From the NCBI GenBank assembly GCA_028717245.1, contig JAQUOD010000001.1, forward strand, positions 149,514 through 213,513: a DNA stretch of 64,000 nt. Reading direction: 5' to 3'. Below the pieces are notes generated by a model. That model did no database searches and had not been told where the DNA came from. It was given only the letters and a program-made list of their open reading frames with translations. A program made the translations under genes and the position numbers. Source of the DNA: Candidatus Omnitrophota bacterium (GTDB lineage Bacteria; Omnitrophota; Gorgyraeia; Gygaellales; Profunditerraquicolaceae). This document shows positions 2,676-64,000 of this stretch, piece by piece. Every line of letters starts with the position of its first letter. Within the stretch, counting starts at the first letter, position 1.

Positions 2676-2721
2676 CCCCGTTAGATAACTTTATTTTAAT
2701 ATAGCGGCTTATCTAACGGGG
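2676..2721 (-). terminator. Perfect 13-bp inverted repeat (CCCCGTTAGATAA / TTATCTAACGGGG) with a 20-nt loop. It spans the stop codon of the upstream CDS and abuts the pgk -35 element. It is a possible weak intrinsic terminator or insulator hairpin.
   Basis: The arms lie at 2676-2688 and 2709-2721 and are exactly complementary. The following tract is only moderately U-rich, so terminator strength is uncertain. Confidence 0.35.
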
Positions 2722-4960
2722 GCAATCTTTTAGAAAAAATTGCTAATAATAGCAAACTGCTCAATTTTAAGAATATGATTATCATACAAGCGCCGAATAA
2801 ACCTAAGACAGGTAAAAGTATGGCTGCGCCGACAATCCCGGCTAACCAGCCTCCCATGAGGTCAGAAAAATAAAGCAATCCCGAAGTAGAACCTACCTGT
2901 GTTTTATCTTTTAGATACATCTTATTAGCCAGCGGAAACTCAAGGCCCACGAGTAAGCCCGAAATAAAAAACATGATGATAAATAGCATTAATGAAAATT
3001 TCGTATAGTTAAAAAATCCGGTAATTATCCAGGCGCTAAGATAAGAGAATAGAACTATTGCGGCTTCTAACTTAATGAATAGGCTCAAGCTATCTTTAAT
3101 CTTCCCGATGTGAGATGTCATAAAAATACTTCCCAGGGTAATCCCGGCCATAAATATACCCGTAAGCAGGCCTATCTTATGGTAAAGGTAACCGTAAACT
3201 ACCTGAAAGGTGAATATAAGGGTTAGATTTATGAGCATACCAAAAAAACCGGTAGTAGCCATACTATAAGCAATATTTAATTTAGGCTTACGGCAAAATA
3301 TAAAAAATAACATCAAAGTTATCGCAAAAATTAACAGCAGGATAACTTTAAAATTTAAATTTCCCAAACTTTGTAGAATATATGCAAAAATCGGAGAAAA
3401 TTGTTTGTTCCAAAGGACTGAAATCTGAAATACCGCAAAAGGCATAAAATCCCGGTTGATTTTTCTGGTAGCGCCCATCAAGGAACGGATAAACCATTCC
3501 AGGTGTTCCTTATCTAATCTGTAATCAAGATACGCGGGTACCAGCATATCGGTTTTAATATTACCCCGCTTTATTCTTTGCGTGATTATTCTAGAATCTA
3601 TAGCCATGATATCAGTGGAATCGGACGCCAGAAACATATTATAATCTCCCGGAATAATGCGTATATAAGGGTATGCTTTTTTTAAGGCGTTTAATATGCA
3701 GGCATTAAGGTCTCGCAATTCGCTGCTTAGATAAGCTAAAGAGCCCGGCAGACAGAATACCAGGATTCCTCCGGCATTTAATCTTTTTTTAATCAGCCCG
3801 AAAAACTCCTGGGTGAAAAAACGGCCGGTTGATAAATCGGCGGGCCCGGATAAACCAATCAACACAATATCATAGCGATTAAAGGTATTCTTAACAAAGA
3901 ACCTGGCGTCTTGATTTATTACCTTTACCCTTTCATCTTGGAGCTCTCTTTTAGTCAAATCAGAGGGATATTTTTTCAGCATATCTATAATCAACGGGTC
4001 AAGCTCTGCATAATCAATTTTTATAACGGGGTGTTTCCGGATTTCGTTTATTAACCCGCCGGCGCCGGCGCTTAAAATAAGGACCTCCCTTGGCTGGGGA
4101 TGGAATAACAAAGGGATATTTCCGAAATCCTGCACAAAGGCGATATCCGGGTAGGGCGTAGTGATTATAGGCAGGCCGTTATAAAAAAAGGTATGCTGCT
4201 GTTCTTTTTTAACGACTACGACATTACCATAAACAGAATTACGGTAATCCAAAACATCCTGCGTATTCCATTGTTTTTTAATAGCGTAATCTTGTATTTT
4301 ATTTAAAGCGCCGCTTGAGGATAGATATATCATTAAGAAAATCAAGAATAAGACAACATATTTGAACATTTTTGGGATATTTTTAAAGAAGAGGAGGCAA
4401 AGAATAAGATTAAACACAGCTATAATAGTTACTGTCTGGAAAGAATTAAAATATGGTATGAAAAAATAAGTAACAGCTACGCCACCGATAATCGTGCCGA
4501 TTGTCTCTAAGGTATACGCTTTGCCTATAGAATGAGCTGATTCTTTTATATACGAAGAATATATCTTACAAGCGCAACTGAATAATGCGCCGTGGCAAAA
4601 ACCTACGGGCAACATTATCAAAAACGAAGAATAAAATATCATAGGTAACCCTATCGCTTCCCCAAAAGGAATTCCCAATATCGGCTTTAAGGTGCGTGAT
4701 AAATACACGGATAACCCCAGCATAGAGGCAAAGGCTATCTGCAGGATGATAAATACATTTATTTTATTTTTAGCCCTGTCAATAAATCCTCCGATAATAT
4801 AAACGCCGGCTGCTTCAGAAATAACCCAATTGGCTAAGATCACCCCTAAGGTCAGCTCATTACCATAGAAACTCACCAATAATTCCCGTAAAAGCGTAAT
4901 CTGCGCTACTATCCCGCTTAGCCCTACCACGATAATAGATAACGTAAGTATATAACTCAT
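2696..4960 (-). CDS. Polytopic membrane protein with an embedded spermidine-synthase-like (SpeE-fold aminopropyltransferase/methyltransferase) domain
   Basis: The central motifs are LILSAGAGGLINEI...IDYAELDP...VINQDARFFVK...YDIVLIGLSGPAD, a SpeE-like Rossmann region. Many predicted transmembrane helices flank it on both sides. The length is 754 aa. Confidence 0.6.
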   Translation of the reverse strand: MSYILTLSIIVVGLSGIVAQITLLRELLVSFYGNELTLGVILANWVISEAAGVYIIGGFIDRAKNKINVFIILQIAFASMLGLSVYLSRTLKPILGIPFGEAIGLPMIFYSSFLIMLPVGFCHGALFSCACKIYSSYIKESAHSIGKAYTLETIGTIIGGVAVTYFFIPYFNSFQTVTIIAVFNLILCLLFFKNIPKMFKYVVLFLIFLMIYLSSSGALNKIQDYAIKKQWNTQDVLDYRNSVYGNVVVVKKEQQHTFFYNGLPIITTPYPDIAFVQDFGNIPLLFHPQPREVLILSAGAGGLINEIRKHPVIKIDYAELDPLIIDMLKKYPSDLTKRELQDERVKVINQDARFFVKNTFNRYDIVLIGLSGPADLSTGRFFTQEFFGLIKKRLNAGGILVFCLPGSLAYLSSELRDLNACILNALKKAYPYIRIIPGDYNMFLASDSTDIMAIDSRIITQRIKRGNIKTDMLVPAYLDYRLDKEHLEWFIRSLMGATRKINRDFMPFAVFQISVLWNKQFSPIFAYILQSLGNLNFKVILLLIFAITLMLFFIFCRKPKLNIAYSMATTGFFGMLINLTLIFTFQVVYGYLYHKIGLLTGIFMAGITLGSIFMTSHIGKIKDSLSLFIKLEAAIVLFSYLSAWIITGFFNYTKFSLMLFIIMFFISGLLVGLEFPLANKMYLKDKTQVGSTSGLLYFSDLMGGWLAGIVGAAILLPVLGLFGACMIIIFLKLSSLLLLAIFSKRLPPLDKPLY

Positions 4961-5025
4961 AGGTTACTAAATAAAAAATGCGGCTTTTCGCCGCACATCA
5001 AACCGCTATCTACCATACAATACGG

Positions 5026-6273
5026 TTATCCTATCTTTGTGTCAGTTTCTAGCTTAATATTATTCATTGCCGCAGCCCCTAAGCCGAGCAGTATCCAGAA
5101 CAATAATCCTAAATCAAGGGAATAAAAAATTGTATCTACGGCCATCTGCACGGAATACCCCAGTAGCGCAGCAAGGCTGGCCAATAAAATATACCAGGAA
5201 AATGTTTTTTGCTGTTCAATCACTGTTTTAATCCCATTATAGAAAAATAATACTAAGATAGCCAAAAACGAAACGAGCCCTATTATCCCTATCTCCGAAA
5301 GTATCTGCAGATAACAATTGTGGGCGTAAGACGGCCCGTATTGATAACTCTCTACTACAAACCTCTTAAAATTAAACATGAATGTCCCTAACCCTAATCC
5401 TATCCAGGGGTTGTACATAAACATCTTCCATCCTGCCTGCCAGAAAATTTTTCTTTCTATACTGCCGACATCGCCTAAAAGGGTAATATCAAAAACGAGA
5501 AGAAAATTATTCAAGCGGTTTTTTATTAAAGTAGGGTAAAACGGCTGTGTTACAATTATAAAAAGGCCCAGGAGCAAAAGAAATATGCCCACAGGATAAA
5601 TCCAGACGCCGATGAATAGTGCCGAGGCCATAAAACCGAACCACGCCCCCCGGGAAACCGTCAATATCAAGCAGATAAAAAGCAGGGCAAATAATCCTGA
5701 TAGAAAAAACCTGGCTGTTTTAGCGCGGGATCTAGCAAAAAAAACAGTGATTAAAAATGGGATTATAGCGTTTAAATAACAACCAAAATCGTTAGGAGTA
5801 GGGAAGGTTGCATAGATTCTGTCTACAAAGATGGTAGGGCGGTGGCGTATAAAATCCTTGCGGGTGAAATTCTGATATATCCCGTCGATCCCCAGGACTG
5901 CTGAAGAAAAAAAGAAAATATAAATAAAATTCTTCAGTCTTTTTTCGTTATTCAGGGTATCCACAAGCACGAAAAAGAATAATATATCCTGAATAGTTTT
6001 ACCGAAGAACGTCCTGGTGCTTATCTTGGGATTGGAGCTGATAAAAATTGAAATAAAACAGATAGCTAAATACGTAAGAATGGCTAAATTAAGGGGAGTT
6101 ACAGAAATACCTTTGCGTTGGGTAATTTTTTTGACTATATAGCATAGAATAGCTAAAGTACTGAATACCTCAATTGCAGCCTTAGAAACAGGAAAAAGAA
6201 GAGCTATGGCATATAATGAGGATAAGGCTACTTTATCGCAAATATCAACTATTCTTGATTTTTCCCAAGTCAT
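5026..6273 (-). CDS. Polytopic membrane protein, O-antigen ligase/polymerase-like (Wzy_C-type)
   Basis: The protein is 415 aa with about 10-12 hydrophobic segments and a larger loop region. It sits beside an initiating phosphotransferase. The family assignment rests on architecture only. Confidence 0.4.
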   Translation of the reverse strand: MTWEKSRIVDICDKVALSSLYAIALLFPVSKAAIEVFSTLAILCYIVKKITQRKGISVTPLNLAILTYLAICFISIFISSNPKISTRTFFGKTIQDILFFFVLVDTLNNEKRLKNFIYIFFFSSAVLGIDGIYQNFTRKDFIRHRPTIFVDRIYATFPTPNDFGCYLNAIIPFLITVFFARSRAKTARFFLSGLFALLFICLILTVSRGAWFGFMASALFIGVWIYPVGIFLLLLGLFIIVTQPFYPTLIKNRLNNFLLVFDITLLGDVGSIERKIFWQAGWKMFMYNPWIGLGLGTFMFNFKRFVVESYQYGPSYAHNCYLQILSEIGIIGLVSFLAILVLFFYNGIKTVIEQQKTFSWYILLASLAALLGYSVQMAVDTIFYSLDLGLLFWILLGLGAAAMNNIKLETDTKIG

Positions 6274-8068
6274 CTATCATTTCCTCTTTATCCAAAAGCC
6301 CCCGTATCTTTCTATAATGGACCCCGCAGCCCTTGCAGATTTTGACTATGTCATAAAAAACGCCTGCGTCTACCGAGGGAATAGCAATAATAACTTCTTT
6401 GATATTTTCCGTTTCTACCAATTCTTTAATCTGCTCCCTCGTTCCTAAAACGGGCACCCCCTGTATTTTATAACCGAGCTTAGCAGGGTCATCGTCAATA
6501 AGCCCGATAGGGTTATAGTTTAAAGCATTATTTCTCTTTATTTCTCTAATGACCAGTTCGCCGGCATCTCCTGCCCCGAAAATTAATACGTTTTTCCCTT
6601 CTTTATGCACCACATGGCTGAATAATTCGCCCAAGACTCTGAACAATACCCTGTATCCGGAGGCTAAGAATAATAACAAGAGCCAATCTATGAAAAATAC
6701 TGCCCGGGAAAACTCCTGGAACCGGAATAAGAAGGTAAAGATAATAACGGAGAAGGCAGACCCTAAGGTAACGGCCTTAAATATCGTAATCAAATCAGAT
6801 ATGCTGATATATTTCCAGACTCCCCGATACAGGCCAAAGATATAAAAGACCGATATCTTTATTAAAATCAGCCACAACAAGGATTTTTCCACTAATCGCA
6901 GATTAGTGCTTAATAATGACCCTTCGAATCTTAAGAAATAGGCAAAATAATAAGCCAGGCAAATAAAGACCAAATCCAGCAATACCTCTAATATCCTGCG
7001 TTTATACAACAATATATTATTCAAAATAGTCTTATTGTTTTTGAGCTCCTGCCATTTCTTATGATCGATAAATTCACCGTTATAGGAAAATGTTTCCGAT
7101 AGAAAAACCCCGAAAAATAACAATATGACGATAGCCAGAAAGGCTATAATCGAAATAGCAAATATATCCAGTTTAGAATACGAAAGCGCGATTAATCCAA
7201 AGGCTATACTTATAATATATAATAAAAAAACTGTTTTCTTCGGGGATAACCCCAAGGCGACCAAACGGTGCGAGGTATGGTCTGTCCCTCCTTCAAAAAT
7301 CTTTTTCCCCTGTAATTTTCTGATAATCATCACGAATATAGTATCGAAGATGGGGACGCTTAAAATAAATACCGGAATAAGTATTGTGGCAAAAAGATGC
7401 GAGATGTTACGCGTTGTCCCGCTTATTGAAATGAACGCTAGGGAATATCCCAGAAACATACTGCCGGAATCGCCCATAAAAATTTTAGCCGGATTCAGAT
7501 TATAAGGCAAAAAACCTAGAGTTGCACCAGCTAAAACCAGGCCAAATACCCCTAATATATTACTCCCGAATATCAGCGAAGAGCAGAATATCATTAATGA
7601 AGATATGGCGGCTATCCCCGCAGCTAATCCATCAATATTATCTAAAAGATTGAACGAATTCGTAACCCCCACTATCCATATCAAGGTCAGGGGTATAATC
7701 AAAATTTCATTTATCGGTAATCCTATAGCGGCTCCAAAAAAAACAGCAATACAGGCAGCGATAATTTGTAGGAATAACTTAGTATAAGGCCTGATATGAT
7801 ATTTATCGTCAAGTAGCCCCACAACAAACAGGAAGGTCGCCCCGATAAATAATCCTAATGTATCTTTATTTATAATTCCCAGCGCAAAGGCAGAAATCAT
7901 AGAAGCAAGATATATGCTTATACCCCCGAGGATTGCGGTAGGATATTTGTGCCAGCGGTCTGAACGCGGTTGGACCACCAGGCCATTTTTAATAGCGATG
8001 TGGCGCACCGTTGGCGTAAGAACCAGGCTAAGAATAAAGGGTATGAGGAAAAGTGTAAGATATTGCAT
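6245..8068 (-). CDS. Polyprenyl-phosphate HexNAc-1-phosphate transferase (WecA/MraY family) fused to a C-terminal CoA-binding (CapD/PglF N-terminal-like) domain
   Basis: The N-terminal membrane domain carries the motif NSFNLLDNIDGLAAGIAAIS and DSGSMFLGY, typical of MraY/WecA. The C-terminus has VLIFGAGDAGELVIREIK...NPIGLIDDDPAKLG...VIIAIPS, a Rossmann-like CoA-binding domain of the kind found in PglF/WbaP-type proteins. Confidence 0.75.
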   Translation of the reverse strand: MQYLTLFLIPFILSLVLTPTVRHIAIKNGLVVQPRSDRWHKYPTAILGGISIYLASMISAFALGIINKDTLGLFIGATFLFVVGLLDDKYHIRPYTKLFLQIIAACIAVFFGAAIGLPINEILIIPLTLIWIVGVTNSFNLLDNIDGLAAGIAAISSLMIFCSSLIFGSNILGVFGLVLAGATLGFLPYNLNPAKIFMGDSGSMFLGYSLAFISISGTTRNISHLFATILIPVFILSVPIFDTIFVMIIRKLQGKKIFEGGTDHTSHRLVALGLSPKKTVFLLYIISIAFGLIALSYSKLDIFAISIIAFLAIVILLFFGVFLSETFSYNGEFIDHKKWQELKNNKTILNNILLYKRRILEVLLDLVFICLAYYFAYFLRFEGSLLSTNLRLVEKSLLWLILIKISVFYIFGLYRGVWKYISISDLITIFKAVTLGSAFSVIIFTFLFRFQEFSRAVFFIDWLLLLFLASGYRVLFRVLGELFSHVVHKEGKNVLIFGAGDAGELVIREIKRNNALNYNPIGLIDDDPAKLGYKIQGVPVLGTREQIKELVETENIKEVIIAIPSVDAGVFYDIVKICKGCGVHYRKIRGLLDKEEMIDDLGKIKNS

Positions 8069-8127
8069 ACTTTAAGCTTTAAAATCAGTGCGTTATACTT
8101 TTTGTCTATTATTATAACATAAAAGCC

Positions 8128-9615
8128 CTATTTTGCTTTCAATATTTTTTTAGCGATGGTGACTGCGATTTTAACAAAATGGATAAGATACTCTTCGGGT
8201 TGCGGTCCAATGATATTAAACTTAACGATTATTTTTGTCCTAAATTTAAACCAAAATCCCGTCCATTGTAAACCCGGTACCCGTTTGGCCATATTGGTGC
8301 TTTTTACTACATTAACGCTTTTCATCAACCATTTTGCATATTTGGCATCTATGAATGGTAAGCATGTTTTTTCGTCCCAGTCAAATCTTGCCCAGCTTTC
8401 AAGTGTCTGGGGGGCTTTAAATCCCATTTCAATACACTTATAATATAAAGGCGTACCTGGATATGGTGTATATACAGACGGCCCCAAAAAATTAGCCCTG
8501 GGGTATTGTTCGTATAATTTTAACATAACCTTATAGGTCTGGAGCAAATCTTCTTTAGTCTCTTCAGGAAAACCGGCCATAAAGTGATAGCTAACACCCA
8601 AGCCGTATTTTCTTAATTTTTCATTTACCCTGAAGACTTCATCCAATTTAATATCTTTGTGTATTAAGTCTAAAATTCTGGGTGATCCGCTTTCAATGCC
8701 AAAAGTTAAAACATTACAACCGCTTTTTTTTAATAAAGCTATGAAGGAATCTTCATATTTGGCAAAATAATCTATTCTGCAATCGGCATGCCAGGCAATC
8801 CTGATGCCTCTTCTGATGATCTCAGTACAAATGTCAACAACCCTTTTTCTATCTACGAATAAATTGTCCCCGACAAAATTAATGCCGTCTAAGGAGAATT
8901 TTTTGGCGAGATATTCAATCTGCTCAACTATGCTGAAAGCTGCAAGGCCTCTCCATTTGCATTGATTGACGTTAATATTATAGCAAAATCCACACCTGTG
9001 GGGACAACCTCTATCTGTATGCAAGTCAAAGATGCGTTTACAATTCGGGTGAGAACTGCGTTTAGCTCTAATATATGTCTCGCAATCCAATAAATGATAC
9101 GGTAGCGAAGAAACACTATTTAGGTCGATGAACCGATCCTTCGGATTAGAATAGATTTTGCCGTTTTCTTTCCACCAGACATTCGGGATATCTGAAAGAG
9201 TGCTACCGCGCCTTAAAGCGGTGACTATCTTTAAAAAAGATTCCTCTCCCTCGCCTCTGACTACAATATCAACCAGGTCATCCCTGACTGTTTCTTCCGG
9301 AAGTATGCTTGCATGCAGGCCTCCCCAGACTATCGGTATGCCAGATCTACCCTTGATAATTTTGGCAAATCTTAGCCCTCCTAAAATTTGATTACCCGTC
9401 ATTGATGAGATACCTACGCAAACAGTAGAATCATTAAGTTCCCTGTCTAGATCATCAAGCCAGTGAAGATTGGTTTCTTCGTCTATAATCTTAACCTTGT
9501 AATTATTTTTCAGCAAAATCTGGCAGATAAATAATAATCCCAAGGGGAGCCTCGGGCTTAATGACCTGGCTTCTCCTTTAGAAATCTTGGGCCGGAATAA
9601 AATTATATCTGCCAT
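8128..9615 (-). CDS. B12-binding domain radical SAM protein (class B radical SAM family), paralog 1 of 6
   Basis: An N-terminal cobalamin-binding-like Rossmann domain is followed by a radical SAM CxxxCxxC motif (GCPHRCGFC). The length is 495 aa. Confidence 0.8.
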   Translation of the reverse strand: MADIILFRPKISKGEARSLSPRLPLGLLFICQILLKNNYKVKIIDEETNLHWLDDLDRELNDSTVCVGISSMTGNQILGGLRFAKIIKGRSGIPIVWGGLHASILPEETVRDDLVDIVVRGEGEESFLKIVTALRRGSTLSDIPNVWWKENGKIYSNPKDRFIDLNSVSSLPYHLLDCETYIRAKRSSHPNCKRIFDLHTDRGCPHRCGFCYNINVNQCKWRGLAAFSIVEQIEYLAKKFSLDGINFVGDNLFVDRKRVVDICTEIIRRGIRIAWHADCRIDYFAKYEDSFIALLKKSGCNVLTFGIESGSPRILDLIHKDIKLDEVFRVNEKLRKYGLGVSYHFMAGFPEETKEDLLQTYKVMLKLYEQYPRANFLGPSVYTPYPGTPLYYKCIEMGFKAPQTLESWARFDWDEKTCLPFIDAKYAKWLMKSVNVVKSTNMAKRVPGLQWTGFWFKFRTKIIVKFNIIGPQPEEYLIHFVKIAVTIAKKILKAK

Positions 9616-9672
9616 TTTAATGATACTTTATAGCTAACCTATAATTATATAGGATGAGAGGTTTATCTTAGT

Positions 9673-10869: not shown

Positions 10870-10902
10870 TTTATTCTATTAAGATAACCCGGGGAAGGAT
10901 TT

Positions 10903-12449: not shown

Positions 12450-12518
12450 TATTTTTTTATTAAAGCATGGGTTATTTTACACAGCCCAACATTAACAGAG
12501 CCAAAATTATTCCTGTGG

Positions 12519-13702: not shown

Positions 13703-13707
13703 AAGTT

Positions 13708-15725: not shown

Positions 15726-15773
15726 TTTATGGCATTACAGAGCATCTTTTTTTTAGTTTTAGTTATAGATATT

Positions 15774-17713: not shown

Positions 17714-17717
17714 CGTA

Positions 17718-46531: not shown

Positions 46532-46545
46532 TTGCCTAAAATTTC

Positions 46546-47625: not shown

Positions 47626-47633
47626 CTCCTCTA

Positions 47634-51207: not shown

Positions 51208-51215
51208 AATAAGTC

Positions 51216-51875: not shown

Positions 51876-51882
51876 ATTAATA

Positions 51883-55859: not shown

Positions 55860-57695
55860 TTACTTCCCATTATGCTGAAAAACGCAGCATTCTAACTTAG
55901 AATACAAAGAACTATCTGACAATTTAATATCTACTTGATATTGTTTACCATCGGACTCCAGAAAATCTTTAATAAGCGGCTTAATATCATTAAATTCTTG
56001 GAATGTAGTGAGGCTTTTACCAAAGAATTCTCTGGCGCCTTTCCTAATGGAAAGGCCTTCCCTAACAAAAGCTAATACCGGAATCTTATTTACTGCTGCC
56101 TGGTAAAAGGAAGAGCTTGGATTGTCGGTTAAAAACATATCGCAATTTTTCAAATTTGTTAATAAGGAATCCATCCTAGCAGAAACATTTGTAAACTTTC
56201 TGGTTGTAATATATTTATAAATTGGGCTTATATTCCCGCTATTTAATGTCGGCAGGCCTTTCCAGATAAAATCATAATCGGTTAACGTAGACAGAAAATC
56301 TATCAATTGTAATTGAAATCTGTAATACCATGTGGATGTATATTCAGCCCCGTCCAGCCTGTTTATTGTTTCCTGAAAAAAGCCCGGCGCATAAAGTATT
56401 CTTTTCTTCCTTTTATTAATAGATTTACGCCTTATCCGCGATAACTTTAACCAATCAACATTAATCATAATTTTGGTCTGATACCCCCTACGCTTAGTTA
56501 CCATTTCAAAATATTCTTTCCCTTCATCGTCATTGGCGAAAAAAATATCTGCAAAACGAAGCTCTGTTATATCCCACATTAAATTTGCGAAAACATTACC
56601 TCCATGGCAGCCGGAGACATTTGTAATACTAGCACTGTTTTTCCCCAGATGCACCAGGGCCTCGTTTACCGTTAAGTTATTCAGGTAAGGATAAATAATA
56701 TACTTAAGATTAACTTTTTCTGTAAAAGACAAAAGGGTATCATAAAATGCGGTTAACTTAGGAATATAACTCTCAAAAAGATAATCTATGCGCGGTTTAA
56801 TCAGGTTTTTAAAATCGATACCGCAGAGTTCTTTCCAGGTGTCAAAAATAAAGTCTGAAATCATACTTTTCTCACGTGGCGGATTAAAAGTCTTATTTAT
56901 CAAAAAATCTATTTCTATCTTTGCGCTTGGTGAATACCTATAAATCTTTTCATCTTCCTTTTTTATAAAAACATTCCAACCGTTTTTATAGAAATCCTTA
57001 ATCCACAGCCTTACCCCATAATCAGTCCCTATAAAAAGAACTGATTTGTTGGCATGGATTTTTGACCTGCCATTTAGCTTGCATTTAATTCCGGTCAATA
57101 AACTATCTATTGCAAAGCGTAACTGCCGCACAATAACCTTAGTTTTTCCAGAACAAGGCACTCTTTTCCTCAATCCGGGAGAAGGCAATAGATGATTAAT
57201 AATTTTTATATCCTTATTTTTACAAATAACCGGCAATACATGATAAAATACTGAATTATCTACCATATAAATCCTATCATCAATATATTCTTTAAAATTA
57301 TAGCCATAATATACTATTGACTTACAAGAAAATTTATCGAGTATTTTCTCTATAAGTTTTGTATAAATATAAATGGGGTCAAGCAGCAACCTTAAATTAT
57401 AGAAAAGAAGATCGCCTATTTCTAAATTTCTAGCTTTAACCTCGGCTATTTCTTTAAAAACCCTATTTAATTCTTGAGAAATTAACAACTCTGTATTAAA
57501 TAATTTCTCCGACATCCGATAGAAAACGGTTAATTCTGATTCAGACAGGCAATCTTCAAGAATTAGGTAGGATATATTTCTCCTACCTAATTCAAAACAT
57601 ACATCAGGATTTAAAGCTACTATTTTTAAGCCGCCCGCCATGAGGTCCCTATCAAACCTCTCAGCAAAAATAAGCGTAGTAGTATTATTTACCAT
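55860..57695 (-). CDS. Orphan 611-aa protein with a TagB/TagF-like GT-B C-terminal motif
   Basis: The C-terminal segment CDMFLTDNPSSSFYQAAVNKIPVLAF closely matches the DxLITDYSS...KP[IV] signature of CDP-glycerol glycerophosphotransferases. Confidence 0.45.
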   Translation of the reverse strand: MVNNTTTLIFAERFDRDLMAGGLKIVALNPDVCFELGRRNISYLILEDCLSESELTVFYRMSEKLFNTELLISQELNRVFKEIAEVKARNLEIGDLLFYNLRLLLDPIYIYTKLIEKILDKFSCKSIVYYGYNFKEYIDDRIYMVDNSVFYHVLPVICKNKDIKIINHLLPSPGLRKRVPCSGKTKVIVRQLRFAIDSLLTGIKCKLNGRSKIHANKSVLFIGTDYGVRLWIKDFYKNGWNVFIKKEDEKIYRYSPSAKIEIDFLINKTFNPPREKSMISDFIFDTWKELCGIDFKNLIKPRIDYLFESYIPKLTAFYDTLLSFTEKVNLKYIIYPYLNNLTVNEALVHLGKNSASITNVSGCHGGNVFANLMWDITELRFADIFFANDDEGKEYFEMVTKRRGYQTKIMINVDWLKLSRIRRKSINKRKKRILYAPGFFQETINRLDGAEYTSTWYYRFQLQLIDFLSTLTDYDFIWKGLPTLNSGNISPIYKYITTRKFTNVSARMDSLLTNLKNCDMFLTDNPSSSFYQAAVNKIPVLAFVREGLSIRKGAREFFGKSLTTFQEFNDIKPLIKDFLESDGKQYQVDIKLSDSSLYSKLECCVFQHNGK

Positions 57696-57715: not shown

Positions 57716-59098
57716 TTAATGGCGTGTTCCTCTAAAGGAATAATCATTTTCATAATAGACTCTTCGGAAATCTTCTATACATTTATCTTCCATGTAGTCG
57801 TAATAGGACGTTATTATTTTTTTATTAGCCTCAAACATTAAATCGGTAAATTCATCGTCCGGGATTTCGGTGAAATTCACTGTTAATAGCTCTAAATTTT
57901 TATGTTTGCGATAAAAATCTTCCGGCCCCTTCAGCAGCCCTTTTTTAATGGCTAAATCGTAAAGAGGAGACCCCGGATACGGCGTTACCGGCCTGATTGT
58001 CCTGAGCTGTCCATAATCATTATATTTATGAAGAAAATCCAATGACCTCTTTAGCGTTTTTTGATTATCGCCAATATTCCCGAATATTATATTGAATAAA
58101 GGCCGGATTCCTCTCTCAAGAGTAAGCCTTATTCCATTCTCTATATCAATGGTAGTTAGTTCTTTATTCATCTTTCTTAAGGCATCGTCGTCGAATTGCT
58201 CAATACCATAATCAATAGCAACGCACCCGCTACGCTTCATTATGTCTAATACTTTAGCATTGGCTTTATTTAGCCTGCCTGTACAGAAATAATTAATATT
58301 AAGATTATTTTTTAAAAATTTTCCACAGATATCAAAGATTCTTTTTTCATTTAGCATAAAGAGTTCATCAAAGAACCATACGTAATTTATATTATAATCC
58401 CGTTTATATTTTTTAACCTCTTCAACTATATTATCCGAGGAACGAAGCCTTATGTCTTTTTCCAACCGATAGCAAAAATTACAATGATAGACACATCCTC
58501 TCTGCGCACTAACGCTTATACCCCGATCCAACGGCGAAGTAAAATACGTCGATTTAATGTAGAATTCCATAGGCAGCGAATCCAAATAAGGCGAAGGAAT
58601 TGAATCTAGATCCATAATAGGCTTTTCCCTGGGATTAACGATAACCCTATCGCCGTCACGAAAGGCAATCCCATTAACGTTTGATAAATTTTCGTTATTA
58701 TCAAGCGCCTTAATAATATTTAAAAACGGTATTTCTCCTTCTCCCATAACAACAGCATCTGCTCCGCAATATCTTATAAAATATTCCGGGACAGGAGAAG
58801 GCCCGTGTCCCCCTAAAACTATAAATGGTTTCTTTTTTAAACTCGTTATTGCATCGCAGATCTTCTTTATCTTTATGTGTTGAAAATACCCCGCAACGAA
58901 ACCCATAGCAACAACATCAAAGTGATTTCTCTTCAAGTATTCATGAAGATGGTCCTCATTATAATGGTAGACATCCTGGCAATAATAGGTTGTCTCTCTG
59001 TATCCGTGTTCCCTTAAATAAGCTGCAACATAGGTAATCCCGATGGGTAAGATATTATCCCTGCTTTCGTTATCATATAAAACGAATAAAATTTTCAT
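57716..59098 (-). CDS. B12-binding domain radical SAM protein, paralog 6 of 6
   Basis: The radical SAM motif is GCVYHCNFCYR. The length is 460 aa. Confidence 0.8.
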   Translation of the reverse strand: MKILFVLYDNESRDNILPIGITYVAAYLREHGYRETTYYCQDVYHYNEDHLHEYLKRNHFDVVAMGFVAGYFQHIKIKKICDAITSLKKKPFIVLGGHGPSPVPEYFIRYCGADAVVMGEGEIPFLNIIKALDNNENLSNVNGIAFRDGDRVIVNPREKPIMDLDSIPSPYLDSLPMEFYIKSTYFTSPLDRGISVSAQRGCVYHCNFCYRLEKDIRLRSSDNIVEEVKKYKRDYNINYVWFFDELFMLNEKRIFDICGKFLKNNLNINYFCTGRLNKANAKVLDIMKRSGCVAIDYGIEQFDDDALRKMNKELTTIDIENGIRLTLERGIRPLFNIIFGNIGDNQKTLKRSLDFLHKYNDYGQLRTIRPVTPYPGSPLYDLAIKKGLLKGPEDFYRKHKNLELLTVNFTEIPDDEFTDLMFEANKKIITSYYDYMEDKCIEDFRRVYYENDYSFRGTRH

Positions 59099-60384
59099 CT
59101 GTATTTCCTTTCTAATAAAGTTATGATTTTTTCTATGCCTATTGCAATATCCCGCATATCGGATTTACGATGAGGCATTCTGACATATTCGTTTATCATC
59201 ATCTGTTCAAAGTGCAGTTTTTCCGCATTAGGGCAAGTGCCTTTAAAATAATTTGTCTTTATATTCTTATTTTCTAAGGCGCTCCAGGGGTAACCATTTT
59301 TGAATGCCTTCTTTTGCCGATATAAAGGCTGCAAATAGAGCGGCTTTGTATATCCCGCAGAGAACTTAACCCCTTCAGCATTCATCAAATCAATTATTTT
59401 CTCCCTTTTTACATTGTATTTTTCCGATAGATAACGCAAAGGATAAACATAATATGTACTATAACAATTCTTTCTTTCTTTCGGAGTAATAAAACAATCA
59501 AATTTATTAAGGTTGCAATTTAAATATTCAACTAACCCTAGTCTTATTTTATTGAAATTATTTAACTTTTTTAATTGCTCAATACCAATGGCCGCCTGTA
59601 ATTCTGTTAGCCTAAAATTAAAACCGACTATATTAACTATATTCTTGTAACCGGCGTTATCAACTACGGCTTCTCCATGATTTCTTATTAATGCTAACCG
59701 GTAAGCGAGTTCCCGATTGTTCGTTACACAAACTCCACCCTCCCCTGTCTGTATTGTTTTATTTACATTTAAACTAAAAATACCAATATCTCCAAAAGTT
59801 CCTACATATTGCTCTCTATATTTTGCTCCATGCGCCTGAGCGCAGTCTTCAATGATTTTTAAATTATGTTTTTTTGCTATTTTAAGAATCCCAGACATAT
59901 CTGCGGGAATGCCGAATTGATGCACAACTAATATCGCTTTTGTCCTAGGTGTTATTTTTTCTTCGATGGATTCCGGCTTTAAGCAACCTGTGTCTAACTC
60001 AACATCCGCAAAAATCGGGATTGCTCCATAAATCAATGCACAGGCTGCGCAGGCAGACATTGTATAAGGCGAAACGATAACCTCATCCCCGTATCCTAAC
60101 TCAAGTGCCCCAATTGCCGCATAAAGCCCGGAAGTTGCGCTATTCATGGAAATAGCATACTTTATGCCATAGTATTCTGCCCATATTTTCTCTAGCCTAC
60201 GAACCCATGGTCCCCCCCAAAAACTAAAAGGCGGGTCGGGTTTATAGGACCCTTCAAATAAAGAAAACTGTCCCCTTTTAAGCACTTTTAATACAGCGCG
60301 CCTCTCCTCTTTGCCTGTAGTAATATTACCAAGCCAGGGCTTTGTGCGAACCGGCCTACCACTATTGATAGCTAATTTTGCCAT
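59095..60384 (-). CDS. DegT/DnrJ/EryC1/StrS-family PLP sugar aminotransferase
   Basis: The sequence has the FSLNVNKTIQTGEGGV lysine region. The length is 429 aa. Confidence 0.9.
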   Translation of the reverse strand: MAKLAINSGRPVRTKPWLGNITTGKEERRAVLKVLKRGQFSLFEGSYKPDPPFSFWGGPWVRRLEKIWAEYYGIKYAISMNSATSGLYAAIGALELGYGDEVIVSPYTMSACAACALIYGAIPIFADVELDTGCLKPESIEEKITPRTKAILVVHQFGIPADMSGILKIAKKHNLKIIEDCAQAHGAKYREQYVGTFGDIGIFSLNVNKTIQTGEGGVCVTNNRELAYRLALIRNHGEAVVDNAGYKNIVNIVGFNFRLTELQAAIGIEQLKKLNNFNKIRLGLVEYLNCNLNKFDCFITPKERKNCYSTYYVYPLRYLSEKYNVKREKIIDLMNAEGVKFSAGYTKPLYLQPLYRQKKAFKNGYPWSALENKNIKTNYFKGTCPNAEKLHFEQMMINEYVRMPHRKSDMRDIAIGIEKIITLLERKYR

Positions 60385-61367
60385 TTCAATGCCCTATCTC
60401 TTATTTCCCATAAAGACACCATTGTTTTACTTACTTCTTCGATTCCAATTTCGGACAATATAGCTGCGTCATTATCCGCAAGATAATCTATAATCTTATT
60501 AAATAAATTCCTAAGGGGAGATTCGCTCTTTAACATGGTGATTTTATTAATATTTCTTAATTCTTTTTCGCCTGAGTTGTTTATTAAAACTTTATCTATA
60601 AAAATATTTTCCCCGAAATCCATAATTCTTATTCGGCCGGATTCAAGCCTCATTTCTATCTCATATAGCTGATAATATTCTTCTGGAAAACTTTCCATAA
60701 AAATTTTTGCATCTGGATAATCCAGGGATATCAACTTGGCATCCACACAGAAATCATTTCCTCTACCCTTAGCGCCGATTTCAGCTGAAATCACCCTGAA
60801 TTCTGAACCTGTAATCATGCGTAAGGTATCCAAAATATGTACCCCGTTATTTAATAAACCGCCGTAATATATGGCGCGGATTGACAGCATCTTCCCAAAA
60901 TCGCCTCTTTTTATTATTTCTCTTACTCTTTGCAACCCGCGATGGAACCGGTAGGTGTGGTTAACAATAAGTTTAGTGCAAGTGTCTGCCAACATTTTTT
61001 TAATCTTAATTAATTCTGCTTTATTTAAGCATATTGGCTTTTCCACAAGAAGGATTCGCGGACGATTAGTATGCTGCAAAATTTTTTTTGCTAAAGTAAA
61101 ATGAGTGCGGTTTGGGGTACACAGTAAAATTATGTCTAACTTCTTGTTATCTAAAAGCTCATCCACATTTACATATTTATCTTTTATGCCCCACGTCCTG
61201 CAGAATTTATTCAGTTTTTTAATATCTTTATCGCATGCTGCTTCTAAATCTATATTCTTATTCTTTCTGCATACCTTAGCATGAGTGAAAGCGCCATCTT
61301 TATTATGGGGGGCATCAAACAAACCTGCTATTTTTCCTGTTCCTATAATAGCGGCTTTATATTTCAT
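60372..61367 (-). CDS. Gfo/Idh/MocA-family NAD(P)-dependent oxidoreductase
   Basis: The sequence has the KAAIIGTGKIAGLF N-terminal Rossmann motif and the NHTYRFH region. I favour the internal ATG start at 61367. Confidence 0.7.
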   Translation of the reverse strand: MKYKAAIIGTGKIAGLFDAPHNKDGAFTHAKVCRKNKNIDLEAACDKDIKKLNKFCRTWGIKDKYVNVDELLDNKKLDIILLCTPNRTHFTLAKKILQHTNRPRILLVEKPICLNKAELIKIKKMLADTCTKLIVNHTYRFHRGLQRVREIIKRGDFGKMLSIRAIYYGGLLNNGVHILDTLRMITGSEFRVISAEIGAKGRGNDFCVDAKLISLDYPDAKIFMESFPEEYYQLYEIEMRLESGRIRIMDFGENIFIDKVLINNSGEKELRNINKITMLKSESPLRNLFNKIIDYLADNDAAILSEIGIEEVSKTMVSLWEIRDRALKWQN

Positions 61368-62130
61368 CTTTACGATATTGCTTCCAGCGTCGGTAAATAT
61401 TCTTATTTGTTGCAATCAACTCGGGATGTTTCTGTAAAAATTTAATTACATCGTGAATTGTAAAATTTGGACTAACCGGGTATAAGTTCTCAATGACGGC
61501 CTTGATAATTATAAAATCTTCCTTTGTATCCAACTCAATCGCTATATCTGGACAGTATAATTGGGGCGGGGCCTCAATATTATGAAGACGGTAACGCTTA
61601 GGGTGCTGCCTGATATATAATGTCCCGTGTTCTCTCACATCGGGGGAAACTGCTCTTTCTGAAGCATCCTCTAAAGTACTTGTTGAATAAACCTCGACCT
61701 CTGCGCCGGAAGGAAAAGTGGTCTTTAAATCATTACTTACAAAATCATATTTATCCATATTTTCAATATAAAACTTAATCATATTATCGATAATTTCCGG
61801 GTCAACAAGCGGCCCGTCACCGAATATTTCTACGCCTATATCTGCATCATAAGTTTTTAATGCATTGAGTATCCTATCCAGAACATCCTCCTCGCTTCCC
61901 CTGAAACAGGCTACTCCTATTTTTTGACAATAGGCTTCAATGACATTGTTCTCGGGATTCAAGGAGGTGGCAACGACTATCTCATCAATTAATTCGGACA
62001 TCATTACTCTTTCTACTAAATACCCCAATATAGGTTTTCCTATAATATCTATCATAACTTTACCGGGGAGTCTCTCTGAATTCATTCTTACACAAATAAC
62101 AGCAACTATCTTAAGACCCTTATCTTTCAT
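61357..62130 (-). CDS. Cytidylyltransferase, SpsF/PseF-like (CMP-nonulosonate synthetase candidate)
   Basis: The motif LKIVAVICVRMNSERLPGKVMIDIIGKPIL is a CTP-transferase G-loop. The length is 257 aa. Confidence 0.7.
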   Translation of the reverse strand: MKDKGLKIVAVICVRMNSERLPGKVMIDIIGKPILGYLVERVMMSELIDEIVVATSLNPENNVIEAYCQKIGVACFRGSEEDVLDRILNALKTYDADIGVEIFGDGPLVDPEIIDNMIKFYIENMDKYDFVSNDLKTTFPSGAEVEVYSTSTLEDASERAVSPDVREHGTLYIRQHPKRYRLHNIEAPPQLYCPDIAIELDTKEDFIIIKAVIENLYPVSPNFTIHDVIKFLQKHPELIATNKNIYRRWKQYRKDEI

Positions 62131-63218
62131 TTTGCGATAATTAAATCTACAATGTTTTGCAGAATATCATCTCTAACAAAAGGAAATCGTTTAATAACTT
62201 TGCGCTCGTTTTTCAACTCCCCGGAAATATTTTCCTTTAACCAATCATAAAGGTTATTTTTATCATAAATACTTTTTATAATATTAAGGCGGACTGCAGT
62301 ACATAACTGTGGCCCTATGAGATGAGGTTGATAAGACACAACTAAGCATCCTAAAATAGCTGCTTCTAATAACGCCATTGAACGCATGCCGACTACCAAG
62401 TCGCTATGCCAAAGCAACGATAATAAATCCGCTTTTAAAATGGTAAGCCACCCTACAACTCCGTCGCCTAATGGCGCTAATTCGCCCCTTTGGTAGCTAG
62501 GGTGCAATTTTTCTATAACTGTGCAACTTTTTCCGATTTTCCTTAAAGCATCAAAAATATCTTGCCTAACAGTATGTTCGGTGTATCCGATGAATTGTCC
62601 CAGCAGACCCGATTCGCCTGGACTTGAGCTATAATCGACACTATGGGTTTCATGTAAAAAAGCAATTATCGGTTTAGGTTTATCTTGAATAAAATCCGGC
62701 GGGGCTGGCGGAGTGGTTAAAAATTTCTCGGCATCAAATGTAAAAATAGACAGGGACGGGTTTCCAGTTATAAATAAACGGTCTAACGGAATCCCTTCAG
62801 CGGCAGCTTCATTTCGGGCTTTTTCATCTTGGCAACAAATAATATCCGGTAAATAAGAAAGCTCACCATCCTCTTTTTGGAATCTAAAATAATAATTAAA
62901 CCATTCATCTAAAATAACAATGCTTCTAATCCCAAGTTTCCTGGCCGCTATGATTAAAAGACGTTCCGGGCTATGATAACGCGTAGTACCACACACTATA
63001 GCTATTGGGGAGATTTCTTTTAGAAGATTAACTGCTGCCGCTTCAGAATTGATATCCTTGGATTCTATAACTTTAATGCCTCGGGTATCAAATAACGTTA
63101 GCATCTCTTCTGATGTAGCTAGCAAAGGGATAAAACCTTTATTTTGTATATATAATAACAGAGGAGATAAGTTCCTTGCTCCTCCAACATCCGTAGCACA
63201 AAATAATAGCTTTTTCAT
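62127..63218 (-). CDS. PseG/SpsG-like GT-B (MurG-like) protein, a candidate nucleotide-sugar hydrolase
   Basis: The N-terminal Gly-rich motif is LLFCATDVGGARNL. The two-Rossmann architecture, 363-aa length and position between a cytidylyltransferase and a NeuB-like synthase match the spsE-F-G/pseI-F-G arrangement. Confidence 0.5.
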   Translation of the reverse strand: MKKLLFCATDVGGARNLSPLLLYIQNKGFIPLLATSEEMLTLFDTRGIKVIESKDINSEAAAVNLLKEISPIAIVCGTTRYHSPERLLIIAARKLGIRSIVILDEWFNYYFRFQKEDGELSYLPDIICCQDEKARNEAAAEGIPLDRLFITGNPSLSIFTFDAEKFLTTPPAPPDFIQDKPKPIIAFLHETHSVDYSSSPGESGLLGQFIGYTEHTVRQDIFDALRKIGKSCTVIEKLHPSYQRGELAPLGDGVVGWLTILKADLLSLLWHSDLVVGMRSMALLEAAILGCLVVSYQPHLIGPQLCTAVRLNIIKSIYDKNNLYDWLKENISGELKNERKVIKRFPFVRDDILQNIVDLIIAK

Positions 63219-63241
63219 TTCAGCCTTACCATATTCAATTC

Positions 63242-64000
63242 TTATATAAATCTGTTTCTCACAAATTCTTTTATCTCTTCTTCGCTTCTCCTGGGAACTT
63301 TATTTTCGTCACCTAATAACTGTTGTGTTATCGTAATGTTACTAATTAAACTTTTTAACTCACTTGGGGTAACTGAAAGTATATGGTCAGTGCCATCTTT
63401 ACATGCCTTATCGAAAGTAAAATGTTTCTCAATTACTCTTGCGCCTAATGCCACGGCAATAAGACATGCGAGTTCACCGATTGTATGGTCAGAATAACCT
63501 ATTTCATATTCTGGAAATTCCTTTTGCAGCGTCCTTACCGCGGATACATTTGCCTCCATATCTTTGCAGGGATATTGAGTTACGCAATGCAAAATATAGC
63601 ATTTCCTTACTTTATTTAAATGAGAAAGAGATTTCTTTATTTCCGTAATATTCGCCATACCCGTGGATAAAAATACGGTATCGGCATGCTCATTTACGTA
63701 ATCAAGCAAAGAAAGATTAAGCATCATTCCTGAAGCAATCTTTATCTCCTTAAGCCCTAACCCCTCGCAAAGAAACCTGGCTCTTTCCAGGCTAAAGGGG
63801 GAACTTAAGAATTTAACTCTGCACATCTGGGCGTATTCCTTCAGCGAAAAATGCGCTTCATCTGAAATATGCACCCTTTTAAACCAGCCGTATTCCGGGT
63901 CGTCTTTACTGAAGTTTTCCGGCTTATAGGACTGGAATTTTACATAATCCGCTCCGGCGGAAGCCGCTTCTTTAATCATCCTTTTGGCCAATCCTATATC
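63242..64000 (-). CDS. NeuB-family nonulosonic acid synthase (PseI/SpsE-like). It is partial, with the N-terminus beyond the window end.
   Basis: The ORF stays open to position 64000 (...DIGLAKRMIKEAASAGADYVKFQ...). It has the conserved NeuB core and the YSDHTIG metal/substrate motif. Confidence 0.85.
   Translation of the reverse strand, partial: DIGLAKRMIKEAASAGADYVKFQSYKPENFSKDDPEYGWFKRVHISDEAHFSLKEYAQMCRVKFLSSPFSLERARFLCEGLGLKEIKIASGMMLNLSLLDYVNEHADTVFLSTGMANITEIKKSLSHLNKVRKCYILHCVTQYPCKDMEANVSAVRTLQKEFPEYEIGYSDHTIGELACLIAVALGARVIEKHFTFDKACKDGTDHILSVTPSELKSLISNITITQQLLGDENKVPRRSEEEIKEFVRNRFI

Follow-up and report, generated by a model that had tools for sequence, protein, structure and literature searches.

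A probable lineage-specific surface-glycan island, rich in radical SAM enzymes, in an uncultivated Omnitrophota bacterium

The rfb (O-antigen) loci of Leptospira, which are largely co-directional and carry nonulosonate genes, are among the described counterparts of the gene array analyzed here, together with the Campylobacter jejuni flagellar island (the Ptm/legionaminic acid, Leg, system) and the Pgl systems of C. jejuni and Neisseria. Nonulosonic acids shape surface recognition by phages, predators, hosts and immune systems, and their known chemistry derives nearly entirely from a few cultivated pathogens. In this work we examine a 64,000-nt stretch of the genome of a Candidatus Omnitrophota bacterium (assembly GCA_028717245.1, contig JAQUOD010000001.1, positions 149,514 to 213,513; hereafter, the window), in which a long array of minus-strand genes for glycan biosynthesis lies next to pgk-tpiA-secG. 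We conclude that the segment from 5026 to beyond 64000 is probably one lineage-specific surface-glycan biosynthesis island, situated between gap and a 754-aa gene followed by pgk-tpiA-secG, and that it most likely encodes one undecaprenyl-phosphate-linked assembly line, which would draw on a Leg-type module with N-formylation, on a second ulosonic-acid module and possibly a third, on heptose/deoxysugar genes and on rhamnose genes. The array is a large, unusually radical S-adenosylmethionine (SAM)-rich but recognizable kind of locus in an uncultivated phylum, and not a new kind of system; under this reading, an uncultivated and possibly host-dependent nanobacterial lineage would invest about 60 genes in a single surface glycan.

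According to PMC4758666, the Leptospira rfb loci are 60-121 kb long, begin with a MarR-type regulator, include dTDP-rhamnose genes and stand between conserved core genes. The Omnitrophota locus resembles them in its very large size, its placement between conserved core genes, a putative MarR-type regulator and its rhamnose genes, and its gene at 23705-25516 matches TIGR04326, the LIC13510 family defined from those loci, far below the cut-off (76 versus 250 bits). It differs in belonging to another phylum, in having a PglK-type ABC exporter instead of Wzx in the part read, and in carrying at least six B12-domain radical SAM enzymes as well as N-formyltransferase-like enzymes. The original prediction had described the locus as far beyond a typical O-antigen locus, a view that holds against enterobacteria and not against the Leptospira loci.

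With the C. jejuni flagellar island the locus shares a PtmE-type CBS-nucleotidyltransferase, LegC-family, NeuC- and NeuB-type enzymes and a cytidine monophosphate (CMP)-sugar synthetase in one operon, at least two nonulosonate pathways and numerous tailoring genes; unlike that island, it has no maf or flagellin gene and no clear LegB, a formyltransferase-like enzyme replaces LegH, a radical SAM gene is embedded in the operon, and the pathway is coupled to lipid-carrier assembly genes. The Pgl systems (C. jejuni PglC/PglK/PglB; Neisseria PglB/PglF/PglL) likewise start from an initiating transferase, extend the glycan with cytoplasmic glycosyltransferases, move it with a flippase and transfer it en bloc; the exporter in the window has PglK as its best NCBIfam match, and its Wzy_C protein is like PglL or WaaL, with PglL, WaaL and Wzy not being separable by the sequence models used. 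Here, however, there is no STT3/PglB, and the initiator is of the polytopic WecA/MraY type, not PglC. The GDP-D-glycero-alpha-D-manno-heptose pathway (Aneurinibacillus S-layer glycan; C. jejuni capsule) is paralleled by a clustered SIS isomerase, GHMP kinase with HddA as best match, nucleotidyltransferase, RmlC-like enzyme and short-chain dehydrogenase/reductase (SDR), which differ in scoring far below equivalog cut-offs and in having no GmhB beside them. Finally, AprD4 and the class B radical SAM enzymes MgmA, TsrM, OxsB, CysS and TokK have in common with the 462-aa radical SAM family discussed below a Rossmann (B12-like) N-terminal domain, a radical SAM barrel and a CxxxCxxC motif; their identity to it is 17-21%, and a nonulosonate-operon context is not reported for them in the literature searched.

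Gene content and the legionaminic-acid-type operon

Fifty-seven minus-strand open reading frames (ORFs) of at least 90 aa tile positions 282-63991, the first three of the window being secG, tpiA and pgk; the phosphoglycerate kinase is 77-83% identical to those of Candidatus Omnitrophota metagenome-assembled genomes (MAGs). Between 2696 and 63991 lie 54 of these ORFs, in agreement with the roughly 55 consecutive coding sequences originally predicted, with small spacings and common 4-nt overlaps. The predicted maximum gap of 60 nt is exceeded in three places (65 nt at 4961-5025, 69 nt at 12450-12518 and 76 nt at 39393-39468), and the largest apparent overlaps (137, 83, 59 and 53 nt) are an artefact of longest-ORF calling and shrink with the gene calls of the public contig.

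A Pfam scan of all 57 ORFs reproduced the predicted gene counts exactly. There are two NeuB synthases (50203-51207, and 63242 to the window end), four CTP_transf_3 genes (ORFs starting at 25532, 26269, 45830 and 61357), four pyridoxal phosphate (PLP) aminotransferases (DegT at 39469, 51883 and 59095; class I/II at 28462), six ORFs that combine B12-binding and Radical_SAM domains (8128, 19587, 30517, 36824, 47634 and 57716) and six with methyltransferase domains (13708, 15081, 15774, 19587, 36102 and 42228). A further radical SAM gene, of SPASM type, starts at 29507, and the CxxxCxxC motif is present in all seven radical SAM proteins. Pfam and NCBIfam likewise bear out a very large co-directional glycan locus that is heavy in tailoring genes and holds a heptose/deoxysugar module besides several for ulosonic acids. 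The claim that every ORF carries sugar-related motifs was overstated: among the 53 ORFs counted from 5026, Pfam domains were found for 46, six lack any match, one matches DUF4330 only, and 2696-4960 is not a glycan gene. Searches of the window for transfer RNA (tRNA) genes and Rfam families (e.g. cobalamin riboswitches) returned none. Curated NCBIfam equivalog cut-offs served as the yardstick for enzyme assignments, most of which score beneath them.

On domain content, the segment 45830-53966 is a predicted legionaminic-acid-type pathway with N-formylation in place of LegH acetylation. Its genes, on the minus strand like all window genes given below, begin at the low-coordinate end with a PseF/LegF-like CMP-nonulosonate synthetase (45830-46531; Pfam CTP_transf_3 79 bits, cut-off 23; PseF model 156 bits, cut-off 206) and a CBS-CBS-nucleotidyltransferase of PtmE architecture (46546-47625; two Pfam CBS domains plus NTP_transferase), a type of gene that recurs in related nonulosonate (NulO) loci. 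The fifth B12-domain radical SAM gene of the window (47634-49022), assigned by Pfam and by its neighbourhoods to a NulO-operon-associated 462-aa family, precedes a hydrolysing nucleoside diphosphate (NDP)-N-acetylhexosamine (HexNAc) 2-epimerase (NeuC/LegG, 49019-50206) and a nonulosonate synthase with SAF domain (NeuB/LegI, 50203-51207); the last two exceed their NCBIfam cut-offs (NeuC_NnaA, 486 versus 236 bits; NeuB_NnaB, 517 versus 400 bits), in models that do not separate Neu from Leg. The position of LegH is occupied by a sugar N-formyltransferase-like enzyme (51216-51875; Pfam Formyl_trans_N) with an N74/H76/D111 triad and with the ArnA formyltransferase domain, GDP-perosamine formyltransferase and PseJ as relatives in the PDB; no hexapeptide (LegH/PglD-like) acetyltransferase was found within 45830-53966, and related loci carry a PglD-like gene. 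A LegC-family aminotransferase (51883-52974), for which this is by far the best family (413 bits, cut-off 420), and an SDR that is a candidate NDP-HexNAc 4,6-dehydratase (52959-53966; Pfam Epimerase; LegB model 48 bits, cut-off 475) complete the module. A better LegB scorer, the SDR at 10903-11874 (185 bits), sits 40 kb away.

The radical SAM gene in this operon is the most interesting result of the locus analysis. It has hundreds of relatives of about 462 aa, at 64-79% identity, in MAGs labelled Nitrospirae, Thermodesulfovibrionales, Thermodesulfobacteriota, Syntrophaceae, Eremiobacterota, Bacillota and Omnitrophica, and across at least six phyla its members share about 70% identity. Forty-nine metagenomic loci have a flank of 6 kb or more; in 37 of them the flank encodes NeuB, NeuC or a CMP-synthetase, compared with 0 of 68 pgk-anchored control loci, and the NulO genes in those 37 are nearly always on the same strand as the radical SAM gene and often abut it. 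In a Bacillota MAG it is part of a complete Leg operon, with the LegG-like gene on one side and the LegI-like gene on the other, and three flagellin genes lie next to it; it is likewise found inside the Leg core in a Thermodesulfobacteriota MAG and in another Omnitrophota MAG.

The 462-aa family falls below the cut-off of every NCBIfam model, and all six B12-domain radical SAM proteins of the window, each with B12-binding and Radical_SAM domains and the CxxxCxxC motif, fall below those for characterized methylases. The structure predicted for the 462-aa protein (predicted local distance difference test score, pLDDT, 92) matches best AprD4, a sugar 1,2-diol dehydratase (template modelling score, TM, 0.71), followed by the cobalamin-dependent methylases MgmA, TsrM, CysS and TokK, and by OxsB; because AprD4 comes first and methylases next, the fold is compatible with C-methylation as well as with AprD4-like deoxygenation. 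Full-text literature searches found no link of radical SAM enzymes to nonulosonic, legionaminic or pseudaminic acids, and the family is apparently undescribed. We tentatively propose that this enzyme and its paralogue at 57716-59098 carry out an undescribed and widespread tailoring step of legionaminic-acid-type sugars in anaerobes, namely C-methylation or AprD4-like deoxygenation of the (CMP-)nonulosonate, a proposal to which we give somewhat less than even weight. A role as replacement of the Leg 4,6-dehydratase was considered and rejected, as related loci keep a PseB/LegB-type SDR alongside.

Were the proposal correct, Omnitrophota, Nitrospirota, Thermodesulfobacteriota, Bacillota and others would display nonulosonic acids not yet seen by chemistry, and the two radical SAM enzymes, together with a SAF-less NeuB route and a possible aldolase route, would supply one glycan with at least three different ulosonic acids. 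A radical SAM enzyme that recurs in legionaminic-acid operons at about 70% identity across phyla is a concrete, clonable target, and the proposal predicts a mass shift of the CMP-sugar.

A DegT-NeuB-NeuC-PtmE-CMP-synthetase-radical SAM series was also observed in an Omnitrophica MAG (GCA_015233335.1, locus L170), inside another large glycan locus that also holds MBOAT acyltransferases, methyltransferases and GFO oxidoreductases; the MAG studied here is thus not the only one with a locus of this sort.

Borders and extent of the island

Downstream, the glycan locus borders on a gene (2696-4960) whose 754-aa product is a polytopic membrane protein; it has about 14-15 hydrophobic segments, and its central domain is spermidine-synthase-like (Pfam Spermine_synth). 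Orthologues that are 53-55% identical lie directly upstream of pgk in loci L005 and L016 of related genomes, beyond which nothing further upstream matches the window, and comparison of these sequences assigns the gene to the conserved core, outside the glycan locus. A terminator-like hairpin with a T-run (4978-4996) lies within the 65 nt that separate the last glycan gene from this core gene; read from 4996 to 4978, it is the sole minus-strand terminator-like site in an intergenic gap in a scan of 1-60000, none being found between about 5 kb and 60 kb. A promoter-like site (11/12) precedes pgk. The conservation of the 754-aa orthologue beside pgk, the hairpin in the gap and this promoter-like site lead us to end the locus at 5026, and not at the 2696 first proposed; the other end, originally put at 64000, lies beyond the window on the public contig.

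There, upstream of the second NeuB gene, the public contig carries a family 2 glycosyltransferase (GT2), an SDR, a DegT and a 186-aa gene, whose N-terminus, as read from the sequence and unconfirmed by domain search, looks like a MarR-type helix-turn-helix (HTH) regulator; an 11/12 promoter-like site with TG stands in front of it. Past the window end the locus extends over 9 kb or more; at least 68 kb are thereby verified, about 62 kb of them co-directional. Further along, positions 1604-5569 of locus L082 (window-equivalent about 67,650-71,600) encode a PseA-like asparagine-synthase amidotransferase, a transglutaminase-like protein and a divergently transcribed seventh B12-domain radical SAM enzyme, a set which hints that a nonulosonate receives an acetamidino-type modification; a methyltransferase and a GT1 glycosyltransferase also occur upstream.

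Two relatives, the closest ones with enough flank (L016 and L005), share the order MGDG-synthase-like, priA, fmt, galT, galT, gap, the 754-aa gene, pgk, tpiA, secG, and neither carries glycan genes between gap and the 754-aa gene/pgk. In the present genome, gap (P0227; on the same 374,736-bp contig as the 462-aa radical SAM gene) is followed by an HTH regulator and then by a gene that, from its N-terminal sequence alone, reads as RmlA-like. Because gap directly precedes the 754-aa gene in the relatives, none of the 68 pgk-anchored loci has NeuB, NeuC or CMP-synthetase genes, and the G+C content deviates (0.368 in the locus versus 0.44-0.45 in the glycolytic genes), these comparisons identify the locus as a putative lineage-specific insertion between gap and the 754-aa gene/pgk-tpiA-secG block. 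The same observations overturn the earlier statement that the array does not sit in an obvious island. As to marks of mobility, there is no tRNA in the window and no integrase domain among its ORFs (Pfam). Two long Logan contigs reach window-equivalent positions of about 112-115 kb without encountering gap, so the full interval from gap to the 754-aa gene may exceed 100 kb.

Glycan assembly and competing explanations

In the putative assembly machinery, a Wzy_C-family membrane protein (5026-6273; Pfam Wzy_C 76 bits), which could be an O-antigen ligase, a polymerase or PglL-like, has 11 hydrophobic segments and reaches 60 bits, below cut-off, with the NCBIfam O-glycosylation-ligase family. It is followed by a MraY/WecA-type initiating polyprenyl-phosphate sugar-1-phosphate transferase (6245-8068; Pfam Glycos_transf_4 125 bits, CoA_binding_3 68 bits; WecA model 105 bits, below cut-off). 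The presence of these two genes is a feature of Wzy-dependent loci. The candidate flippase is a half-size ABC exporter of the MsbA/PglK type (31973-33781; Pfam ABC_membrane and ABC_tran), with PglK as best NCBIfam match (321 bits, cut-off 1000) and with MsbA and HepA scoring similarly, and a GT-C fold membrane glycosyltransferase (16451-17749; Pfam PMT_2, ArnT-like) has 12 hydrophobic segments. In 59 kb, the phosphoglycosyl transferase, the ABC exporter, the Wzy_C protein and the GT-C enzyme each occur once, and at least seven glycosyltransferases are encoded. The initiating transferase is unusual in that its Glycos_transf_4 domain is fused to a C-terminal membrane and CoA_binding_3/PglD_N-like region; such a region is normally the N-terminal part of WbaP-type transferases.

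Since a WecA-type transferase, a PglK-like ABC exporter and a Wzy_C protein occur together, the predicted machinery points to a lipid-linked glycan that would be ligated in the periplasm to lipopolysaccharide (LPS) or to proteins. In the mechanism that we envisage, CMP- and NDP-activated sugars would be made in the cytoplasm and joined together on undecaprenyl phosphate at the cytoplasmic face of the membrane, the ABC exporter (31973) would flip the lipid-linked product, and the Wzy_C protein (5026) would ligate or polymerise it onto lipid A-core or onto periplasmic or surface proteins. The GT-C enzyme (16451) might glycosylate it further in the periplasm, and the tailoring enzymes may methylate, acylate and possibly C-methylate or deoxygenate the glycan.

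Several observations weigh against a single lipid-linked assembly line in one island. Most enzyme assignments fall below the curated equivalog cut-offs, so that substrates and products are predictions. Pfam found no Wzx (MOP-family) or Wzz/polysaccharide co-polymerase (PCP) protein among the 54 ORFs or in 9 kb upstream; OPX/PCP export genes, a WaaL-specific marker and an S-layer gene are absent from the 68 kb read; and flagellin, pilin, Maf (PF01973) and PglB/STT3 are missing from the window and from the 9 kb beyond it (L082). With no gene for flagellin, pilin, S-layer protein, Maf, PglB, Wzx or Wzz in those 68 kb, the locus itself designates neither the acceptor (LPS or protein) nor the chain length, and the S-layer, flagellin or pilin targets suggested originally stay hypothetical. 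Six ORFs (11871, 23705, 27703, 53979, 55860 and 62127) have no match in the local Pfam library, and no gene was assigned as GmhB, the sole HAD-like ORF (27703) lying 13 kb away, which weakens the heptose reading of one module. The gap-HTH-rmlA arrangement was recovered on a 3.4-kb contig only, and its adjacency to the island is inferred. The promoter and terminator scans were at the level of shuffled sequence overall, and what we use of them is the placement of sites in the two border gaps. Lastly, the region contains a divergent gene and two regulator genes, and the whole is therefore not a single operon.

A rival explanation is that the array is not one pathway, and that several independent glycan loci (e.g. 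for an O-antigen, a capsule-like polymer and protein glycosylation) stand side by side in a hypervariable region. This explanation, which would account for at least four sugar-activation modules of different chemistries, for two HTH/MarR-type regulators with a divergently transcribed gene upstream and for a locus that may extend tens of kb further, is unlikely in view of the single initiating transferase, single exporter and single Wzy_C protein in 59 kb, and of gaps that never exceed 76 nt and hold no terminator-like site from about 5 kb to 60 kb.

We consider still less probable, and doubtful on the gene content, an island of the Campylobacter/Clostridium type for glycosylating flagellin or pilin, in which CMP-nonulosonates would pass straight to a filament protein in the cytoplasm and the Maf/FlmG-like transferases would be the three soluble proteins of about 600 aa. 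In its favour, the conserved radical SAM family adjoins flagellin genes in three related loci (L083, L102 and L158), two NulO modules are present as in the C. jejuni island, and these three soluble proteins either are GT-B-like or lack an assignment; yet no flagellin, pilin or Maf match occurs in the window or the 9 kb upstream, and the lipid-carrier transferase, ABC flippase, GT-C enzyme and Wzy_C protein are all dispensable for cytoplasmic flagellin glycosylation. A secondary-metabolite cluster for a glycosylated or aminoglycoside-like product is highly improbable: the tailoring of antibiotic sugars typically involves B12-domain radical SAM enzymes, an NDP-sugar C-methyltransferase, DegT aminotransferases and an AprD4-like fold, but Pfam found no aglycone machinery (polyketide synthase, non-ribosomal peptide synthetase or cyclitol synthase) in the window ORFs, and the locus bears hallmarks of surface glycans in its NeuB, NeuC and CMP-synthetase genes, WecA-type transferase, Wzy_C protein and PglK-like exporter. 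A surface glycan assembled on a lipid carrier within one island is the reading that we retain.

The possibility of an assembly chimera, raised in the original prediction, was checked against contigs from independent Logan assemblies of SRR22315506 and SRR22315508, which show 0 mismatches to the window over the stretches compared (7463-12963, 12967-25084 and 40203-64000), so that two runs match it base for base over 7463-25084 and 40203-64000. The public contigs break at about 12,965 and 16,950; the second break is bridged in the second run, and the first, the sole break common to both assemblies, coincides with a perfect 18-nt tandem repeat of 3.5 copies (12934-12996) inside an intact DUF4330 ORF, in which it encodes QQALQA repeats. 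A chimera of several organisms' glycan genes, suggested by the metagenomic origin of the genome, by a G+C content that varies from 0.30 to 0.42 along the locus and by the two breaks, is very unlikely, and the least probable of the explanations weighed here, because of the zero mismatches over those stretches and the repeat that coincides with the shared break, and the GC skew is uniform along the window.

Other sugar modules and tailoring genes

The segment 57716-64057 is, on domain content, a predicted second ulosonic module that continues upstream. It starts with the sixth B12-domain radical SAM gene (57716-59098), at 46.5% identity to its paralogue at 47634-49022, and a DegT-family aminotransferase (59095-60384) and a GFO/IDH/MocA sugar oxidoreductase (60372-61415), both from Pfam/NCBIfam. 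A KdsB-like cytidylyltransferase (61357-62130; Pfam CTP_transf_3 116 bits; best NCBIfam matches KdsB subfamilies, below cut-off), a 363-aa protein without Pfam or NCBIfam family (62127-63218), whose PDB match to UDP-GlcNAc 2-epimerase is non-significant (E 0.3), and a SAF-less NeuB-family synthase cut by the window end (63242-64000) follow; the full gene of the latter encodes 271 aa and ends at window-equivalent 64057. The SAF-less NeuB was considered as a novelty and rejected, since such forms are known from environmental bacteria (PMC8208679).

A third CMP-activation route, built on an aldolase, a phosphatase and a cytidylyltransferase and not on NeuB or KdsA, is possible at 23705-30484. This segment encodes two CTP_transf_3 cytidylyltransferases (25532-26248, Pfam/NCBIfam; 26269-26937, Pfam), a HpcH/HpaI-like class II pyruvate aldolase-family protein (26934-27701; Pfam 49 bits; HpcH/YfaU aldolases in the PDB, E 5e-5) and a probable HAD-type hydrolase or phosphatase (27703-28461), which has no Pfam or NCBIfam match, a weak PDB match (E 0.11) and a DLDGVLFDT motif read from the sequence. 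A HisC/CobD-like class I/II PLP enzyme (28462-29643), aminotransferase or phospho-amino-acid decarboxylase, and the radical SAM protein with SPASM domain (29507-30484; CxxxCxxC) were both assigned with Pfam/NCBIfam.

The genes at 36102-45882 suggest a route to a branched, amino, methylated heptose or deoxyhexose. They encode a CmcI/rhamnosyl O-methyltransferase family protein (36102-36827; Pfam 237 bits), the fourth B12-domain radical SAM enzyme (36824-38524; Pfam, CxxxCxxC), a formyltransferase-like protein that may transfer an N-acyl group to an amino sugar (38532-39392; Pfam/NCBIfam), a DegT-family sugar aminotransferase (39469-40608; Pfam/NCBIfam), an RmlC-type NDP-sugar 3,5-epimerase above its cut-off (40648-41211; NCBIfam rmlC 198 bits, cut-off 156) and a GHMP kinase with heptose-7-phosphate kinase HddA as best match (41235-42215; 157 bits, E 6e-46, cut-off 600). 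An NDP-sugar C-methyltransferase family protein (42228-43469; Methyltransf_13 and Methyltransf_14 domains), an SDR epimerase, dehydratase or reductase (43456-44499; Pfam/NCBIfam), a GmhA- or PtmF-like SIS-domain sugar-phosphate isomerase (44532-45164; GmhA 81 bits, cut-off 209; 181 aa in the public gene call) and a HddC- or ManC-like sugar-1-phosphate nucleotidyltransferase (45082-45882; HddC 75 bits, cut-off 300) complete the set. The heptose reading is plausible and, because GmhB is missing and every heptose-pathway score is below cut-off, unproven; a hexose would be an equally possible substrate of the same enzymes.

Candidates for further glycosyltransfer are three soluble proteins of about 600 aa. 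That of 603 aa (23705-25516; no Pfam match; one weak transmembrane segment) is a candidate glycosyltransferase, weakly related through its TIGR04326 match to the Leptospira LIC13510 surface-carbohydrate family. The 625-aa protein (53979-55856), a candidate glycosyltransferase or polymerase, has a precomputed Pfam match to PF27878 (PFTS_polysacc), and a literature search on this family returned unrelated papers only. The 611-aa protein (55860-57695) belongs to a sizeable uncharacterized family, GT-B-like by predicted model: a word-index search retrieved 3 relatives, and an exhaustive profile search 988 representatives (249 at E <1e-30), mostly of 600-650 aa. Searches of PDB sequences gave nothing for the 611- and 625-aa ORFs and non-significant matches (E 0.07 or worse) for the 603- and 363-aa ORFs. 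The idea that the 603-, 611- and 625-aa ORFs are paralogues was dropped: the hidden Markov model of the 611-aa protein misses the other two, and BLASTP shows no similarity among the three. In other genomes, an unannotated protein of about 600-680 aa is encoded directly downstream of the NulO-linked radical SAM gene in L085 (9448-11490) and at least nine other loci (L091, L094, L097, L101, L108, L122, L134, L141 and L163), and is weakly similar to the 625-aa PF27878 ORF.

The remaining genes lie between the initiating transferase and the heptose/deoxysugar module. The first B12-domain radical SAM gene (8128-9615; Pfam; CxxxCxxC at residue 204; below every NCBIfam cut-off) is followed by a GT4-family (GT-B) glycosyltransferase (9673-10869; Pfam Glyco_trans_1_4 and Glyco_transf_4), by the LegB- or RmlB-like NDP-sugar 4,6-dehydratase-like SDR already mentioned (10903-11874; Pfam GDP_Man_Dehyd), which scores 185 bits with NCBIfam LegB and 176 bits with dTDP-glucose dehydratase, both below cut-off, and by a small ORF without Pfam match (11871-12449; 123 aa in the public-contig call). 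The DUF4330 protein (12519-13130; Pfam), with an N-terminal hydrophobic segment and the QQALQA repeats, contains the 18-nt repeat at 12934-12996, whose copy number may be variable or collapsed. Next come a hexapeptide-repeat O-acetyltransferase (13127-13702; domain search), a SAM methyltransferase fused to a GT2 glycosyltransferase (13708-15084), two class I SAM methyltransferases (15081-15725 and 15774-16463), these three from Pfam, and, beyond the GT-C gene, a TuaH-like GT4 glycosyltransferase fused to DUF218 (17718-19586; Pfam/NCBIfam).

The second B12-domain radical SAM protein is fused to a class I methyltransferase domain (19587-21896; Pfam); its best NCBIfam match is the Sden_1168 P-methyltransferase family (304 bits, cut-off 575), and no phosphoenolpyruvate (PEP) mutase gene lies nearby. 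A GT2 glycosyltransferase (21896-22816; Pfam/NCBIfam) and an RmlD-like dTDP-4-dehydrorhamnose reductase (22806-23708; Pfam RmlD_sub_bind 201 bits; NCBIfam rmlD 186 bits, cut-off 224) lead up to the 603-aa gene. On either side of the ABC exporter, the third B12-domain radical SAM enzyme (30517-31965; Pfam, CxxxCxxC) and a GT2-type glycosyltransferase with TIGR04440 domain (33771-34922; 168 bits, cut-off 70) are encoded, and a GDSL/SGNH hydrolase-like protein with an N-terminal anchor (34919-36097; Pfam) possibly handles O-acyl groups.

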